A DNA stretch of 20,005 nt from an uncultured Methanosarcinales archaeon (GCA_964354085.1 CAYGYA010000010.1:1-20005), one strand, 5' to 3'; shown: positions 8,101 to 13,942, counted from the first letter of the stretch. Translations and numbers: made by a program. The notes: generated by a model from the letters alone, not told the origin.

Positions 8101-8649
8101 GCAGAAACCGAGTATAAAGAACTGATAAGAAAGAAAGACAAGCTAGGGATAGAAAGAGAAGACGTTCTAGTAATGATTAATGAGATTGACAGCAAAAAGA
8201 AAGAATTATTCATGAGAACCTATGATGTGTTGAATGAGAACTTCAAGAAAATATTTGCTACCCTTAGTGCTAAAGGAGATGCTTTCTTTGAACTAGAGGA
8301 ATCAACAGAGACAAGCCCTGGGGGGATGACTATCAAGGTCAGATTGGTAGGCACTAAGTTCATGGACATCAGAAGCCTGAGCGGAGGAGAAAAAACCCTC
8401 ACAGCACTAGCATTTATCTTTGCAGTGCAGGATTATGCGCCAGCCAGCTTCTACATACTGGACGAAGTAGATGCAGCCCTTGACAAGCACAACTCAGAGA
8501 AATTTGCAAAGCTAATCAGGAGCTACTGCAAGAACGCGCAATACCTGATAATCAGCCACAACGACTCAGTAATAAGCGAAGCAGACAATCTCTACGGAGT
8601 AAGCATGAACGAAGACAGCATAAGCAAAGTGACGAGCTTGAAGATATAA
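5149..8649 (+). CDS. smc: Chromosome segregation protein SMC
   Basis: 1166-aa ORF with Walker A GPNGSGKSN and long Lys/Glu-rich coiled-coil arms. It also has a central hinge (GTVSELGQV...GLAIDLV), the signature LSGGEKT and Walker B FYILDEVDAALD. A GGTGA Shine-Dalgarno-like element lies about 10 nt upstream. Confidence 0.95.
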   Translation: MTRINRLVMKGFKSFANKTEMVFGDHFNCILGPNGSGKSNVLDALCFVLGKSSVKDMRAEKSANLIYNGGKRKSPSKEGSVGIYFDNKSKIFGAEFGEEVEITRIVKHNGQSTYKINTKTRTRQQIIDLLSKARINPNGYNIILQGDIVRLIEMSPMERRSMIEEIAGISIYEDKKNKAIRELTRVEEKLNEATIILAERENYLKDLKKERNQALKFRDLNDKIKQNKATVLDRKINIKKTKRDELECKIGDNNKRIDALKKDIEKLRDSIAKKKKEIEDINKEVEEKGEKEQVALHKDIEKIKVETALNKQRIQTVEGEIKKINDRTVELNNSYKELLDKITILENNKKELEGRIKTNEKDLGLVEKSIVDFRKKNKLEDAQKIDTDVTEIDKKADAIQEEVHKLREKQQELLREKDRLDLKIQSIDDKIEKVLGIEKENKVSLEKLKSNRESLKKKENELTKALDYDASLATQLGDARDKHLAKKEEESGMRARSVSIRESMEGGFALKRILELKANGTIKGIIGTVSELGQVKEEYALALEVSAGPRLSSVVVETDEIAAKCIKYLKENKLGIATFLPLNKLKPREVRDGLRKLEKPGVIGLAIDLVTFPEKYRKVFEYVFGSTLVVETVETARKVGVGEERMVTLTGDLIETSGAMQGGFRQRKKGIGFQDKEINEKLKSLEAEIKDLSNIIANLDVKKKNNETRIEDLRKEKAEHEGEVIKLEKTLHLDSADLDANKKEKEGIAGELANINTESEKIRKELIDKNKELTNLKEQKQKLREELARLKSPALLAELNSFEQKKTELKEELSKLHLEIKNNDIQHSTILGPEGGKIQQILKQHEKEKTDFSREKKEVQELIQTQELELKEKEKNQAQFFAQFKALFTKRTKLSEEINKLEAEIIIKDNGTREHEQKNNITGLENAAIKAELAGLEQEFRQYEGVPLFKEKSDEDMEKEIRQFEKMMSDIGAVNMKALEIYEKAETEYKELIRKKDKLGIEREDVLVMINEIDSKKKELFMRTYDVLNENFKKIFATLSAKGDAFFELEESTETSPGGMTIKVRLVGTKFMDIRSLSGGEKTLTALAFIFAVQDYAPASFYILDEVDAALDKHNSEKFAKLIRSYCKNAQYLIISHNDSVISEADNLYGVSMNEDSISKVTSLKI

Positions 8650-8669
8650 TTGTAATTTTTCTTTTATCT

Positions 8670-9578
8670 TTATATATAAACAGCCATTAATGGTCCGTTC
8701 AAGTCAAAAATTAAATTAAGAATCCGATCTAGCAGGTTAATAATCTTTATTTCTTTTTTTGAACACGAAATTGATATCTGATCTAGTCTTTTTTGCATGG
8801 TTTCTTTGTTTTTTCCAAAGTCAACAATTTTGCTCAATTCAAATGTATAGAATAAATCATAAAATGACTTCTGAAACCCAGAAAGATCCTTTATGAAAGA
8901 TTTTATTTTATTATCTACTTTGATCTTGTTTGCAGAAACATACTCGCATAAATCTCTATACCTGTCAACAACTTTTTCTGATTGTTCAATAATGGTGTAT
9001 AACGGGGCTGTTCTTCTGGATTCTGTCTCAAGACCCAGATTGATTGCTCTTCTGCAGTAATCTGCACATTTATCAGACTCAATTTTCATCAAGGTGATGT
9101 TTTTCAGCCAGTCAAAATCATCCTTATTAATAGCCTCAGCAACTTCCGAGGCAATATTGCTTAAAACAAAAAAAAACCTTCGGAGTACATTATCAAACTC
9201 TTCAAAGCAGGTTTGCGATATATTCTTGATAGTTATGCTGTTTTTGGTCTGGTTTATTATCTCAAATCCAGAGAATTGCTCTCTCATCAAGTTCTGAATT
9301 GATTTTAGCTCTTCAAACGAATCAAAGGCAATATGGACCTCATCATATCCTGACTTGAAGGCAGATCCGATTATTTTCCGTATCATCGGTTGCGCATTAG
9401 AAACGTTCAAATCTATTTTTTTATGCTCGTAATGTTTTTTTGTAGTAATAGCAAGCTTTCCTTTGAACTCATCTAATTCTATTTCATCACCTTTCTTTAG
9501 ATTATTTTCCTTAACCCATTTTCTAGGTAATGAAACTGTCAATGAGGACAAGCCATGCTGGATTAATTTCCTTCTCAT
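8670..9578 (-). CDS. AbrB/SpoVT-domain plus PhoU-like regulator (archaeal phosphate-uptake-regulator type)
   Basis: The N-terminus MRRKLIQHGLSSLTVSLPRKWVKENNLKKGDEIEL is a typical AbrB/SpoVT swapped-hairpin domain. The remainder is helical and PhoU-like. I chose the ATG at 9578 rather than the ORF-track TTG at 9629, because TTTATAAA (9601-9608) is centred about 27 nt upstream of 9578. That fits a leaderless arrangement. Confidence 0.7.
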   Translation of the reverse strand: MRRKLIQHGLSSLTVSLPRKWVKENNLKKGDEIELDEFKGKLAITTKKHYEHKKIDLNVSNAQPMIRKIIGSAFKSGYDEVHIAFDSFEELKSIQNLMREQFSGFEIINQTKNSITIKNISQTCFEEFDNVLRRFFFVLSNIASEVAEAINKDDFDWLKNITLMKIESDKCADYCRRAINLGLETESRRTAPLYTIIEQSEKVVDRYRDLCEYVSANKIKVDNKIKSFIKDLSGFQKSFYDLFYTFELSKIVDFGKNKETMQKRLDQISISCSKKEIKIINLLDRILNLIFDLNGPLMAVYI

Positions 9579-9600
9579 GCTCAACTGTAACCTGTTCTGA

Positions 9601-9608
9601 TTTATAAA
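9601..9608 (-). promoter_or_regulatory. TATA box for the AbrB-PhoU gene
   Basis: TTTATAAA lies 23-30 nt upstream of the ATG at 9578 on the minus strand. Confidence 0.4.
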
Positions 9609-9680
9609 TTTTTCTAAAAATGTATTCAAAACACATTATGTATACATTAAATTTAATAATGTACTTCATATAACTAGGTT

Positions 9681-10166
9681 GTGATTAAAATGATACTTAA
9701 CGATTTAATATACCACGCGGATTCTGAGAGCTTAGTTAAAAAATATCCTTTTATGAAAAGAATATTATCCTTAGAAGGTTTCTACTCAAAAGAAGATATA
9801 GTTGTTCTTGAAGGAATTATTAATTCTGAATTATTAGAAAGGCCGTCTCATTATACTAAATATCGTTCGGATGATGGACTTCCGGCTTACAGAATTTTTT
9901 CAGAAAATCCATTGATGCCAGATAAAGAGGGGCCTGTACCAACATATGCTGTACAAGGAGAGACGATTAAAAAATTAGGATTAGAATACCAATTAGTAGA
10001 TAAAGAATATATTGAGGATGACTATGATGCAGAAGTCAGATTAAATCCCTACCCGCTTTCAATAAAAAAAGAGTTATCTCTTAAACACGTAGAAAACCCA
10101 GATTATATTGTATGCAGAGACAGAAAAGTAAATCAATTGAAGTTTGATGTTTATAGAAAGGAGTAA
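9681..10166 (+). CDS. Hypothetical protein, A-type member 1 of the cassette (KYPF-motif family)
   Basis: 161-aa ORF starting at GTG 9681, with an alternative ATG at 9690. It is paralogous to 10523-11002: KKYPFMKRIL...VLEGIINSELLERPSHYTKY...ENPDYIVCRDRK aligns with EKYPFLRKMM...VIETVINQEILEMRTHSKTSY...CDPDFIVIRERK. No known family was recognised. Confidence 0.7.
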   Translation: MIKMILNDLIYHADSESLVKKYPFMKRILSLEGFYSKEDIVVLEGIINSELLERPSHYTKYRSDDGLPAYRIFSENPLMPDKEGPVPTYAVQGETIKKLGLEYQLVDKEYIEDDYDAEVRLNPYPLSIKKELSLKHVENPDYIVCRDRKVNQLKFDVYRKE

Positions 10167-10176
10167 ATGATTGAGA

Positions 10177-10530
10177 ATGCCAAAATACAAAATACCTAAG
10201 CAAGGGATAATAAAAGAGCTTGAAGAAGTGAAAAATGGCAAGCTTGAAGAGTTGCTAACAAAAAAAGAATTTCAGCAATTATTTGAGAAGTATCCTTACT
10301 GCCGTGATTTCTTACGAAAGTATGATAAGCCTGTCAGAGAGGTCAATGTAGAGCAAATCAGGCCAGATATTATGGAAGGAAGCCAATATTCCTACGATTC
10401 AGGATTCAATTACTTCTCCAGCACAATGAAGCACCAGGATATGTATATACATTGCTTTGATATATGGCAAGAAGAATCTGACAAAGACACAGAAATAACG
10501 TTTTATATCCCGGAGGCACAACATGGTTAG
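10177..10530 (+). CDS. Hypothetical protein, B-type member 1 (MPKYKI N-terminus plus KYPY motif)
   Basis: 117 aa counted from the ATG at 10177 (the ORF track starts at TTG 10171). An AAGGAG Shine-Dalgarno lies upstream. The start is 11 nt after the stop of the previous gene. The first 18 nt are identical to the start of 11007-11918. The segment FEKYPYCRDFLRKY...VNVEQIRPDIMEGSQYSY aligns with the N-terminal half of the A-type proteins. Confidence 0.7.
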   Translation: MPKYKIPKQGIIKELEEVKNGKLEELLTKKEFQQLFEKYPYCRDFLRKYDKPVREVNVEQIRPDIMEGSQYSYDSGFNYFSSTMKHQDMYIHCFDIWQEESDKDTEITFYIPEAQHG

Positions 10531-11002
10531 CGACGATGAAATGAAAAAATGGGAAGAGAAATACCCTTTTCTGAGAAAAATGATGAACGGCCCGGTTGTG
10601 AAGACTGAAAAAGTAATTGAGACAGTCATAAACCAGGAAATTTTGGAAATGAGAACCCATTCAAAAACATCATATGAAGGGCAAGAGGTGGCGTATAAAG
10701 AAGAATTATATCTGGAACATCCACGTAATGGGAGTAATTTTATACTTATTCCTGATATTGCTAATATATACAGAGGGCTATTAACTTGGTGTGTAAAAGG
10801 AAGAGATGTTAACATGCTTGGGCTAGAGCATGTCATAATTTCAAGCCTATATGATTATCACGATGAACCTTTTTATTCAGGTTATGATTGCTTAAGAGAA
10901 GAGCCACAACTTATCAAAGATGAAGTTTGCGACCCGGATTTTATAGTTATTCGAGAACGAAAATTTGATGCTGGTTCTTATATCATCGCTAGGAGGAGTT
11001 AG
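10523..11002 (+). CDS. Hypothetical protein, A-type member 2 (KYPF-motif family)
   Basis: 159-aa ORF. Its start overlaps the upstream stop (ATGGTTAG, 8-nt overlap) and is preceded by GGAGG. It is a paralog of 9681-10166. Confidence 0.75.
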   Translation: MVSDDEMKKWEEKYPFLRKMMNGPVVKTEKVIETVINQEILEMRTHSKTSYEGQEVAYKEELYLEHPRNGSNFILIPDIANIYRGLLTWCVKGRDVNMLGLEHVIISSLYDYHDEPFYSGYDCLREEPQLIKDEVCDPDFIVIRERKFDAGSYIIARRS

Positions 11003-11006
11003 AAAC

Positions 11007-11918
11007 ATGCCAAAATACAAAATAGAACTTTTTCATGGTGAGCCTGGCTGTGGCTGTGGTTGTTTTGACAATGACCTTAACATTGCAGAACAGAATTTCA
11101 CCAAAGCATATTACTTTTTTGGGACTGAGGAGCAGGCAGAAAAAAAGCTAGCTTGGTACAAGGAAACTGCATGTCCTTCTTACGGGAACCATTGGACCTT
11201 GACCGAAGAAGTAAAGAAGCCTCGCCTGGTTATAGTCTCTGGCCCATCAGGAGTTGGTAAAGGGCCTATTATTGATTGGGTGAAGAGGTTATTTTTTAGG
11301 GATTTGGATTTACGTCAGGTGAATGTAAGAAAGACAAAGACAGAAAGACATAATGGGAATGAAGAGGACTTGGGCTTCGTTGGGGTAGGGAGAGAATATT
11401 ATTCTTTTGATTGTAGAGGAGCACAACAGAGAATAGATTTGGATGAGCTGAATTCAGCATTAGCAAAAAACAATGTTGTCTTGCTTGAAGTTTATTATAA
11501 GGCACTTGATTTCTTGCAAGAAAGATACGGACTTCATACTGATTTTACTCCAGTATTCATTTCTCCGTTGAGGCTAGAAGAAATAAAAGAACTTCGTGAA
11601 AAAGAAAAAAATTTAGAAGACTATCTGCCTGGCCTGATGCTTGAATCTCTAAAAACAAGAGCAATGAAGGATGGAAAAGGATTAACAAATTCTCTGGTGA
11701 GTGAATTAGAGCTTAGAGCCAACGATTCCATTGATGAAATGAGATTTGCCCATAACTATGAGTATGTTATCCCAAATAGCTGTTATGAGTCAGATGCGAG
11801 ATGGAAAGCTCCTTTTATTGTTGGAGAGCCATTGAAAGTTGTTAAGTCTTTAAATGATATAATCGAAACAGGAAGCAGCGTTTATGCACTTAATGGAAAA
11901 GAATTTGGGTTGTTTTGA
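11007..11918 (+). CDS. Guanylate-kinase-like P-loop protein with a novel Cys-rich N-terminal domain (B-type member 2)
   Basis: 303 aa counted from the ATG at 11007, which sits 4 nt after the upstream stop with a strong AGGAGGAG Shine-Dalgarno. The ORF-track start at 10965 lies inside the previous gene. The N-terminus is MPKYKIELFHGEPGCGCGCF. The C-terminal roughly 220 aa resemble Gmk:
- LVIVSGPSGVGKGP resembles bacterial Gmk LIVLSGPSGVGKGT.
- KTKTERHNGNEED...YYSF resembles TTRxPRxGExxGxxYxF.
- NYEYVIPNS resembles YDYVVxND. Confidence 0.7.
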   Translation: MPKYKIELFHGEPGCGCGCFDNDLNIAEQNFTKAYYFFGTEEQAEKKLAWYKETACPSYGNHWTLTEEVKKPRLVIVSGPSGVGKGPIIDWVKRLFFRDLDLRQVNVRKTKTERHNGNEEDLGFVGVGREYYSFDCRGAQQRIDLDELNSALAKNNVVLLEVYYKALDFLQERYGLHTDFTPVFISPLRLEEIKELREKEKNLEDYLPGLMLESLKTRAMKDGKGLTNSLVSELELRANDSIDEMRFAHNYEYVIPNSCYESDARWKAPFIVGEPLKVVKSLNDIIETGSSVYALNGKEFGLF

Positions 11919-13818: not shown

Positions 13819-13881
13819 AATATAATATAGGTGGGAATATATGTTTAATTAGTTTTTGGTTTCAAGCCTTAAAAAGAATAT

Positions 13882-13895
13882 GATGCACCGGCTGG
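13882..13895. repeat. 14-nt direct duplicate of the tRNA-Gly 3' end (GATGCACCGGCTGG)
   Basis: This is an exact copy of 13941-13954. The duplicated stretch covers two 3'-flanking nt, the discriminator, the whole 3' acceptor strand and four T-stem nt of tRNA-Gly. Confidence 0.9.
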
Positions 13896-13942
13896 CAATC
13901 AGAAAACCAAAGGGTTTTCTGGGCCATCCGTTGCATCTACGA

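Follow-up and report, generated by a model that had tools for sequence, protein, structure and literature searches.

A 20,005-nt stretch of DNA (GCA_964354085.1, CAYGYA010000010.1:1-20005; the whole stretch is referred to here as the window), listed as coming from an uncultured Methanosarcinales archaeon, carries four packed genes at 9681-11918 that a first-pass annotation, made from the sequence alone, described as a duplicated module of unknown proteins ending in a guanylate-kinase-like protein. Our data indicate that these four genes are part of a locus that is conserved among tiny archaea of the DPANN (Woesearchaeota) type and has not been described before. In it, a regulator with an AbrB-type DNA-binding domain faces an operon of small, variable genes that always ends in a divergent kinase with the guanylate kinase (GMK) fold. 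The function that we tentatively favor, with confidence that stops a little short of even, is that of a GMK-derived phosphotransferase controlled by the regulator, which would act on an acceptor other than GMP and would use the small proteins as exchangeable adaptor, sensor, or regulatory subunits. The small-protein families, named here A, B, C, and D, are undescribed, and the architecture of the locus is undescribed as far as we know and in the literature searched. The kinase belongs to a known superfamily, as a new and divergent branch of it, and the regulator has a DNA-binding domain of a standard type.

Linkage of the regulator, the small genes, and the kinase

We found the regulator gene divergently upstream of the operon in 10/10 kinase-anchored loci that had enough flanking sequence (the window, L001, L003, L005, L006, L009, L011, L099, and the loci of proteins P0019 and P0024). 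A metagenome search for regulators at least 50% identical to the window copy gave 10 further loci in which the regulator faces an operon ending in the kinase, and 8 in which it faces cassette genes before the contig ends. The first-pass annotation had considered that the four genes might never co-occur elsewhere; our neighborhood survey shows approximately 20 independent loci, and the linkage is conserved. Genes outside of the unit vary, being SMC and a glycosyltransferase in the window, leucyl- and alanyl-tRNA synthetases (LeuRS and AlaRS) in L001, and exosome and SBDS genes in L003. Because the flanking genes differ between loci, it is the unit itself that is conserved and not its neighborhood. 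An accessory context between a regulator and a glycosylation region, as had been suggested, is not what we found: the flanks are housekeeping genes (Dus, M48 peptidase, RNase HII, SMC, GT1, and PIG-L in the window), and the regulator is itself part of the unit. Two neighbors elsewhere may be coincidental, namely an ADK/AAA_17-type nucleoside monophosphate (NMP) kinase (960-1508) near the regulator of L056, a locus without the GMK-like kinase, and an AAA_33/APS-kinase-like protein (6860-7477) convergent with the kinase in L003.

The regulator of the window (8670-9578, minus strand) is a 302-aa protein with an N-terminal SpoVT/AbrB domain (Pfam MazE_antitoxin, PF04014; E 5e-8), which scores 28.7-33.6 bits against a cut-off of 24.7 in 5/5 orthologs. 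Regulator orthologs are 51-77% identical, 297-304 aa long, and all start with M(R/K)RKLIQHG; the start codon in the window is ATG 9576-9578 (MRRKLIQHG...) and not TTG 9629. Beyond the AbrB domain lie approximately 240 aa that are mostly helical and match no significant family, and a profile of the regulator had no match among PDB sequences. A full-length PhoU (PF01895) match to the C-terminus was present in 1/5 orthologs, at E 0.12 only. PhoU-like regulators are common in Pyrococcus furiosus (PMC6316755), and for the regulator described here a PhoU-like C-terminus is no more than a hint. It resembles archaeal AbrB/SpoVT-domain factors, possibly those that combine AbrB with a PhoU-like region, in an N-terminal domain above the Pfam threshold, a gene divergent from its putative target, and a palindromic intergenic element, and it differs in that its C-terminal 240 aa belong to no significant family. 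It also has a weak match to an "addiction module antidote" family (E 1e-4). Regulators of only 26-37% identity were never found with the kinase and often adjoin Lrp/AsnC-like genes, as judged by eye. Among such distant homologs, those of L080, L083, and L086 (31-34% identical; positions ~5000, 5000, and 4032) lie beside a divergent protein of ~160 aa, Lrp/AsnC-like by eye, and in L080 and L086 a protein of ~715 aa follows too, a separate conserved context of the regulator family. L084 carries two such regulators in tandem.

The regulator and the operon are separated by a divergent spacer (9579-9689 in the window) of conserved length, approximately 101-111 bp. Across this non-coding DNA, an alignment of five loci has a mean column identity of 73%, with the invariant blocks TGTA..A.AA.ACAT..GTAT.CA. 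A/T-rich TATA-like boxes on both sides flank a central palindromic element at 9619-9648 (AATGTATTCAAAA/TTATGTATACATT). The inverted repeats of the spacer differ between two regulator clades, reading AATGTATT-N3-AATACATT in L003 and GTGTACA in L001 and L005. The palindromic element is likely an operator, and the TATA-like boxes may serve as promoters.

Downstream of the spacer, the plus strand holds four packed open reading frames (ORFs): A1 (9690-10166, 158 aa), B1 (10177-10530, 117 aa), A2 (10523-11002, 159 aa), and a last gene (11007-11918, 303 aa) that encodes domain C (11007-11213, ~68 aa; "B2" in the first-pass annotation) followed by the divergent GMK-fold P-loop kinase domain (11214-11918, ~234 aa). 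The sequence itself shows gaps of 10 nt, -8 nt (the overlap ATGGTTAG of A2 with the B1 stop), and 4 nt between them, and Shine-Dalgarno-like elements precede B1 (GGAG, 10160-10163, at a long spacing of 13 nt from the ATG), A2 (GGAGG, 10512-10516, 6 nt), and the last gene (GGAGGAG, 10992-10998, 8 nt). Gene order, spacing, and ribosome-binding elements were all reported correctly in the first-pass annotation, and the gaps and the overlap confirm that its translationally coupled unit is a compact, real operon. It had left the start of A1 undecided between GTG 9681 and ATG 9690. The GTG is a possible start, and we favor ATG 9690: the first operon genes of L001, L003, and L005 have their ATG at the aligned position, and in L005 and L001 the GTG is either missing or not in frame. 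For the last gene, the database call (P0001, 316 aa) begins at ATG 10968 and overlaps A2 by 35 nt. Here we favor ATG 11007, since the M-x-K/R-Y-K/R-I start of domain C is conserved in homologs (in the form M-x-K/R-Y/W/F-K/R-I/V/L it is kept in most of the eight aligned) and the GGAGGAG element stands ahead of it.

Small domains upstream of the kinase

The genes between the regulator and the kinase form a variable array. At least one gene or domain lies upstream of, or is fused to, the kinase in 20/20 kinase loci, and in 18/20 this partner is C, B, A, D, BIG, or TPR; the upstream protein of the other two (L061 and the P0019 locus) is unassigned. With ~ for a fusion to the kinase (KIN) and · for a fusion between small domains, the window reads A - B - A - C~KIN, L005 reads A - B - C - B - KIN, L099 reads B - BIGn - A - C~KIN, L011 reads TPR - C·D - B - C~KIN, and L058 reads TPR - C - C·B - x - KIN, where x is a 95-aa ORF without assignment. 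The remaining arrangements are C·D - KIN (L009, L050, L069, L070, and L071), C·D - C~KIN (L054), C~KIN (L001, L075, and L010), B~KIN (L006, L060, and the P0024 locus), and BIG - KIN (L003).

Among 177 kinase-family proteins, we found 18 C~KIN, 7 B~KIN, and 2 KIN~C fusions, and C is also fused to a kinase that is only ~30% identical to that of the window (P0065). The small domains are joined to one another as well, as B·A (P0040), A·D (P0034 and P0041), C·D, and C·B (L058). The recurrence of fusions in varying order is our main reason to propose a physical association of the small domains with the kinase. The array also turns over quickly. Regulators that are 89-94% identical are found with different cassette sets and with kinases that are 62-79% identical (for L005 and L069, 93% for the regulator and 74% for the kinase), while the kinases of L003 and L069 are 81% identical and their regulators 51%. 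The last comparison indicates that operon modules recombine between lineages, and the others indicate that the kinase evolves faster than the regulator.

A1, B1, A2, and the N-terminal 68 residues of the last protein matched no Pfam, NCBIfam, PHROG, or PADLOC family; across these databases, the four proteins gave nothing beyond a sub-threshold P-loop/GMK match, and profile searches of A, B, and C against PDB sequences gave nothing significant. The small proteins thus belong to no described family, as the first-pass annotation had supposed. The AlphaFold model of A1 is mostly beta (pLDDT 79, pTM 0.77), and Foldseek found no neighbor for it in the PDB or in the viral BFVD set (best E 0.2-0.3, TM<0.27). 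Both A proteins of the window belong to the A family, as an A1 and an A2 subtype. The tyrosine of the KYPF motif, seen in A1, is invariant in the A family and is not kept in B (RFNF, RFPS, KFPM). B1 itself has KYPY, followed by ...YSYDSGFNYF... and a C-terminus of ...ITFYIP. Its orthologs are P0046 (57% identity), a gene of L052 (54-58%), and a gene of L099 (45%); database members of the B family are few (three matches), and an alternative B1 start at GTG 10231 would fit the length of the orthologs. A B domain is fused to the N-terminus of the kinase in P0008, P0024, and P0025. An A-like N-terminal half had been noted in B1. The likeness is weak and comes down to a segment of approximately 30 residues round the (K)YPF motif (hhalign E 5e-4, with a probability of only 30% over 31 columns). 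Tried as members of one fold, A and B were aligned by hhalign in these 31 columns at the KYPF motif only.

Domain C is the commonest partner of the kinase. Its signature consists of M-x-K/R-Y-K/R-I, a Gly/Cys-rich loop, and F-x-G-S/T-E (MPKYKI..EPGCGCGC..F.GTEE..A.. in the window), and AlphaFold predicts a beta-beta-alpha-beta arrangement in which confidence is low for the Gly/Cys loop. Domain C forms a protein of its own in L005 (5497-5688), heads the C·D proteins of L009, L011, L050, L054, and L069-71, and is joined to the kinase by fusion in the window, P0014/15, L001, L011, L054, L075, and L099.

Relatives of A and B are also present on contigs that appear bacterial. L007, a 240-kb contig, has an A1-type gene that is 63% identical to A1 and convergent with a B-type gene, among genes bacterial in type (GreA, LytR, a pilin N-methyl motif, and S11 peptidase). 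L008, another contig with bacterial gene content, encodes an A·D protein. Neither contig carries the kinase or the regulator, and their assignment to bacteria, possibly the candidate phyla radiation (CPR), is by gene content only. In L007, where this gene group spans 6782-8911, the A1-type gene is also divergent from a 303-aa protein, which we considered as a regulator homolog and rejected; its HD-domain match is weak and falls slightly short of the Pfam cut-off (E 5e-4).

We questioned whether the window arrangement was a duplicated A-B module, as the first-pass annotation had it. A1 and A2 are indeed paralogs along their whole length (BLASTP E=6e-12, 27% identity). A1 is 59-63% identical to P0038, P0034, and P0035 on other contigs, including the contigs with bacterial gene content (L007 and L008), and for A2 the figure is 58%, with the gene that opens the L005 operon. 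Because they are 27% identical to each other and 58-63% identical to relatives elsewhere, A1 and A2 are two old subfamilies that were brought together, with no local duplication. Nor is "B2" a copy of B1. We tried the two as homologous proteins and rejected this, as their BLASTP match is limited to the six residues MPKYKI (E 0.16). This identity is an exact 18-nt direct repeat, ATGCCAAAATACAAAATA, with one copy at 10177-10194 on the B1 start codon and the other at 11007-11024 on the start codon of the last gene, 830 bp downstream. The chance expectation for the repeat is 0.01 matches, and two matches occurred in 0/100 shuffles. B1 orthologs (P0046 and the L052 gene) start approximately 17 residues further in and lack MPKYKI. 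The common beginning that had been taken to mark module copies is thus only a shared DNA repeat, "B2" is a different domain (C), and the duplicated module does not hold.

The two repeat copies enclose A2 and the body of B1, exactly. In L099, C~kinase has an A1-type gene immediately ahead of it, and adjacent locus tags point to the same order on the P0039/P0015 contig. Given a repeat spaced by 830 bp and the A1-then-C~kinase adjacency of L099, the A1 - B1 - A2 - C~kinase order of the window was probably created when a cassette of B1 and A2 entered an operon of the form A1 - C~kinase; recombination at the short homology of the 18-nt repeat would have placed the cassette in this ancestral operon. 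A second apparent DNA repeat (10263/11089) lies in different reading frames and was treated as chance.

A divergent guanylate kinase fold

The AlphaFold model of the last protein has a pLDDT of 85, and its top 50 Foldseek matches in the PDB are all guanylate kinases (probability 1.0, TM (target) 0.54-0.67). Sequence matches to the same superfamily are below family thresholds: NCBIfam GMK models match the P-loop stretch only (E 4e-6, 26 bits against cut-offs of 160-263, that of TIGR03263 being 160), Pfam GMK (PF00625) scores 12 bits against 25.2, and the kinase family profile finds Plasmodium GMK in the PDB over 113 columns (E 5e-4). Fold and sub-threshold matches together support, for the C-terminal domain, the earlier description of the last protein as guanylate-kinase-like. 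The family comprises 29 clusters at 90% identity, in metagenome-assembled genomes (MAGs) of Woesearchaeota and Nanoarchaeota, and an exhaustive search of representatives reached E<1e-30 for 21 clusters and E<1e-3 for 254. The more distant relatives, of approximately 250 aa, include proteins above the Pfam GMK cut-off. Because the distant members grade into proteins that pass this cut-off, the kinase family is a divergent branch of the GMK superfamily. Some distant GMK-like members are fused to other signaling or phosphotransfer modules (a histidine-kinase ATPase domain in P0073 and a PEP-utilising mobile domain in P0159), and one member of the distant clade, P0147, is a 3354-aa protein. The gene contexts of the wider family were uninformative: P0065 adjoins an unassigned 357-aa protein with a chance-level Peptidase_M29 match only (E 0.07), and P0090 lies on a 1.4-kb contig.

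The P-loop SGPSGVGKGP, which contains the Walker A motif GPSGxGK, is invariant in 29 sequences. In full-length numbering, the invariant positions include the G79-K85 P-loop, R218, R237, and K224. In an alignment with yeast and Escherichia coli GMK, the equivalents of yeast Guk1 R38, R131 (R218), and R146 (R237) are invariant. The set of residues that contact GMP in the Guk1-GMP structure (S34, R38, R41, Y50, E69, Y78, and D100) is largely lost: R38 alone is kept, S34 has become Thr, and the equivalents of R41, Y50, E69, Y78, and D100 are replaced, Y78 by an invariant Gln and D100 by an invariant Tyr. R135 of the Guk1 LID is replaced as well, with an invariant Lys two positions on. The LID carries a helical insertion of approximately 25 residues, and the domain ends in a C-terminal extension (NHCYESDxRW...GEP). 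This pattern suggests that the domain is an active phosphotransferase and, since the phosphotransfer residues are kept and most GMP-binding residues are lost, that its acceptor is most likely a molecule other than GMP.

The kinase therefore shares with Gmk/Guk1 (PF00625, TIGR03263) the fold, the GPSGxGK P-loop, the R38/R131/R146 equivalents, and a series of intermediate sequences above the Pfam cut-off. It differs by its sub-cut-off scores, the replaced R41/Y50/E69/Y78/D100, the LID insertion, the C-terminal extension, and an N-terminal C or B domain, and it is rare, fast-evolving, and tied to the regulator and the cassette array. The near-universal, single-copy housekeeping distribution of Gmk is not seen here. 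We found true members in at least 3/185,579 species-representative genomes, all of them Woesearchaeota or Nanoarchaeota MAGs, a count that is a lower bound because the genome scan was pattern-limited. Rarity of this degree argues against a housekeeping role. A search of the literature on a missing archaeal guanylate kinase and on GMK-like proteins in DPANN archaea found nothing relevant.

Possible functions of the locus and other features of the window

We reasoned that these observations are best accommodated if the locus encodes a regulated phosphotransferase with exchangeable partners. The AbrB-domain factor would control its own gene and the operon from the shared, palindrome-bearing control region. 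The product of the last gene would transfer phosphate by means of the retained Walker A Lys, one acceptor-phosphate Arg, and two LID Arg, in a domain whose acceptor pocket has been rebuilt. The small cytoplasmic domains (C, B, A, D, BIG, and TPR) would associate physically with the kinase as adaptor, sensor, or regulatory subunits and, as the fusions suggest, might set when the kinase acts, or on what.

Several observations weigh against this reading. Regulation, kinase activity, a non-GMP substrate, and subunit interaction are each deduced indirectly. The P-loop Lys is followed by Gly-Pro and not by Ser/Thr (Firmicute GMKs have GKGT), and normal Mg-ATP binding is not guaranteed. A occurs in only 3/20 kinase loci, is never fused to the kinase, and has a model of moderate confidence (pLDDT 79) built from 9 sequences. 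Because the A + B pair of L007 and the A·D protein of L008 occur without kinase or regulator, A and B have a function independent of the kinase. In one locus (L068), a regulator at least 50% identical to the window copy faces a BIG gene without the kinase, and four or five close regulators face unrelated genes (L056, L063/L072, and L066); the linkage of regulator and kinase is strong and not obligate. The data all come from metagenomic contigs, with pattern-limited sampling.

If a regulated phosphotransferase with exchangeable partners is nonetheless the right reading, DPANN archaea have turned the fold of a housekeeping nucleotide kinase into a regulated enzyme that uses a different acceptor, and have left the control or targeting of this enzyme to small domains exchanged as cassettes. 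The kinase and the transcription factor would then anchor a function for several "hypothetical protein" families. Among these is A, which has no structural neighbor in the PDB or BFVD and is approximately 60% identical between archaeal and bacterial-type contigs, and this would open a way to study the physiology of uncultured ultra-small cells and their exchange of genes. The practical value stays modest as long as neither a substrate nor a phenotype is known. DPANN genomes hold many lineage-specific operons of this kind; what distinguishes this locus is its strong linkage and its network of fusions. A bolder reading, which we consider conceivable though doubtful, is that of an unrecognized modular signaling or conflict system of ultra-small symbionts, in which a combinatorial kit of small, novel-fold domains (A, B, C, D, and BIG) would direct a kinase that derives from GMK and has a new substrate, with a dedicated AbrB-type regulator as the switch of the whole unit. 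Recombination would exchange the domains between DPANN lineages, and A, B, and D are found also on the contigs with bacterial (possibly CPR) gene content. Such a system would amount to a constant effector with swappable sensors, built on a nucleotide-kinase fold.

We asked whether the locus could instead be a conflict module of the toxin-antitoxin (TA), abortive-infection, or symbiont-host kind, which we judge unlikely. The kinase would then arrest growth by phosphorylating or depleting a nucleotide-like metabolite that the cell cannot do without, the small domains, as exchangeable inhibitors or sensors, would set the kinase free when triggered, and the AbrB/MazE-domain protein would repress the locus. 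P-loop kinase toxins exist (zeta/PezT), and the locus resembles type II TA systems with such toxins (epsilon/zeta, PezAT) in the translational coupling of small upstream genes with a gene for a P-loop phosphotransferase and in an AbrB/MazE-type DNA-binding domain nearby, in a regulator that also has the weak antidote match. A constant enzyme with variable, sensor-like N-terminal domains is likewise reminiscent of CapRel-type fused sensor-toxin proteins, and the fast turnover of cassettes between conserved flanks, the kinase outpacing the regulator, and the exchange of modules between lineages would suit a conflict system. Where L068 lacks the kinase, two pairs of an antitoxin and a PIN/VapC-like gene, recognized by eye only, lie past the BIG363-type gene (3803-4897, minus strand) at ~3389-2108 on the same strand. 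However, PADLOC-DB 2.0 gave 0 matches for the four proteins at E<=1, their PHROG matches are at chance level (E > 0.07), and our literature search found no link of guanylate-kinase-like proteins to a defense system. None of the relatives lie on IMG/VR viral contigs, and a viral or proviral origin is unsupported. The first-pass annotation had proposed checking for a defense island or provirus; the neighbors are housekeeping genes, and neither was found. The kinase is GMK-fold and not zeta-fold, and is not a Zeta_toxin, Fic, or HipA protein, and A, B, and C belong to no TA family recognized by Pfam, NCBIfam, or PADLOC. Unlike a type II antitoxin, the only DNA-binding protein here is 302 aa long and divergently transcribed from the opposite strand; no short co-transcribed antitoxin is present, and the number of cassettes at the locus varies from 0 to 4.

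Nucleotide salvage is likewise improbable, and to a similar extent. The kinase would serve nucleotide-auxotrophic DPANN cells as a GMP (or other NMP/dNMP) kinase under a nutrient-sensing regulator, and the small genes would be unrelated lineage-specific ORFs that gather at a permissive, well-expressed site. The GMK fold and its conserved catalytic residues are consistent with this, as are three members of the wider family (P0090, P0110, and P0067) that have the canonical TR/PRPGE...DY.F GMP motif and pass the Pfam GMK threshold, and the A-B pair of L007 lies beside the weak HD-domain phosphohydrolase (E 5e-4). To our knowledge, canonical gmk is rarely annotated in archaea. The count of at least 3/185,579 species genomes is too low for an essential enzyme, however, most GMP-contacting residues are replaced, and the kinase diverges fast and recombines between lineages. 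The recurrent fusions of C and B to the kinase, with C in both orders, contradict the idea of unrelated ORFs.

A protein kinase or scaffold, in which the GMK-like domain acts on or merely binds the small proteins and A, B, C, and D are its substrates or clients, in the manner of P-loop protein kinases or of catalytically dead MAGUK GK domains, seems to us quite improbable. The fusion network does show physical proximity, the acceptor pocket is remodeled away from GMP, and the Tyr of the A-family KYPF motif is invariant; in B, though, this Tyr is not conserved. An analogy is offered by the SH3-GK supramodule of MAGUK proteins, in which a small domain is likewise permanently coupled, on the N-terminal side, to a GMK-fold domain whose GMP site is altered. 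In MAGUK GK domains of eukaryotic scaffolds, the catalytic function of the P-loop is lost. The kinase described here differs in its strictly conserved P-loop and two strictly conserved LID arginines, domain C is predicted to be beta-beta-alpha-beta and not an SH3 barrel, and there is no sequence relation. We know of no precedent for a GMK-fold protein kinase. Finally, the null hypothesis of the first-pass annotation, a chance local duplication of ORFan genes without conserved linkage, is refuted despite two A paralogs in one operon and the small size of the B family, since each gene has closer orthologs elsewhere in like operons, A1-type proteins are ~60% identical across archaeal and bacterial-type contigs, and the linkage recurs in ~20 independent loci.

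Other features of the window lie outside the locus. ARAGORN found no tRNA anywhere in the window, and Rfam at gathering threshold found no RNA family. Below that threshold, a tRNA-like element is present at 13949-14016 on the minus strand (Rfam tRNA 22.6 bits, gathering score 29), with an anticodon loop of CUUCCAA (CCA, possibly Trp) and 9 nt inserted in the D region. The element may represent an archaeal tRNA that is atypical or contains an intron, and ~13880-13940 may hold another tRNA-like stretch. The largest unannotated gene in the window, a 603-aa ORF at 14159-15970 (minus strand), matches no Pfam family and has weak NCBIfam hints of a C-terminal zinc ribbon and anchor. A 381-aa protein at 2670-3815 (plus strand) matches Pfam MATCAP (microtubule-associated tyrosine carboxypeptidase) at E 5e-49, in what appears to be a DPANN archaeal contig. 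The plus strand also encodes a 173-aa protein with a helix-turn-helix (HTH) of the sigma-70 region-4 type (16231-16752, E 2e-8), unusual for an archaeal-type contig, and an ArsR/MarR-type HTH protein (17794-18459).

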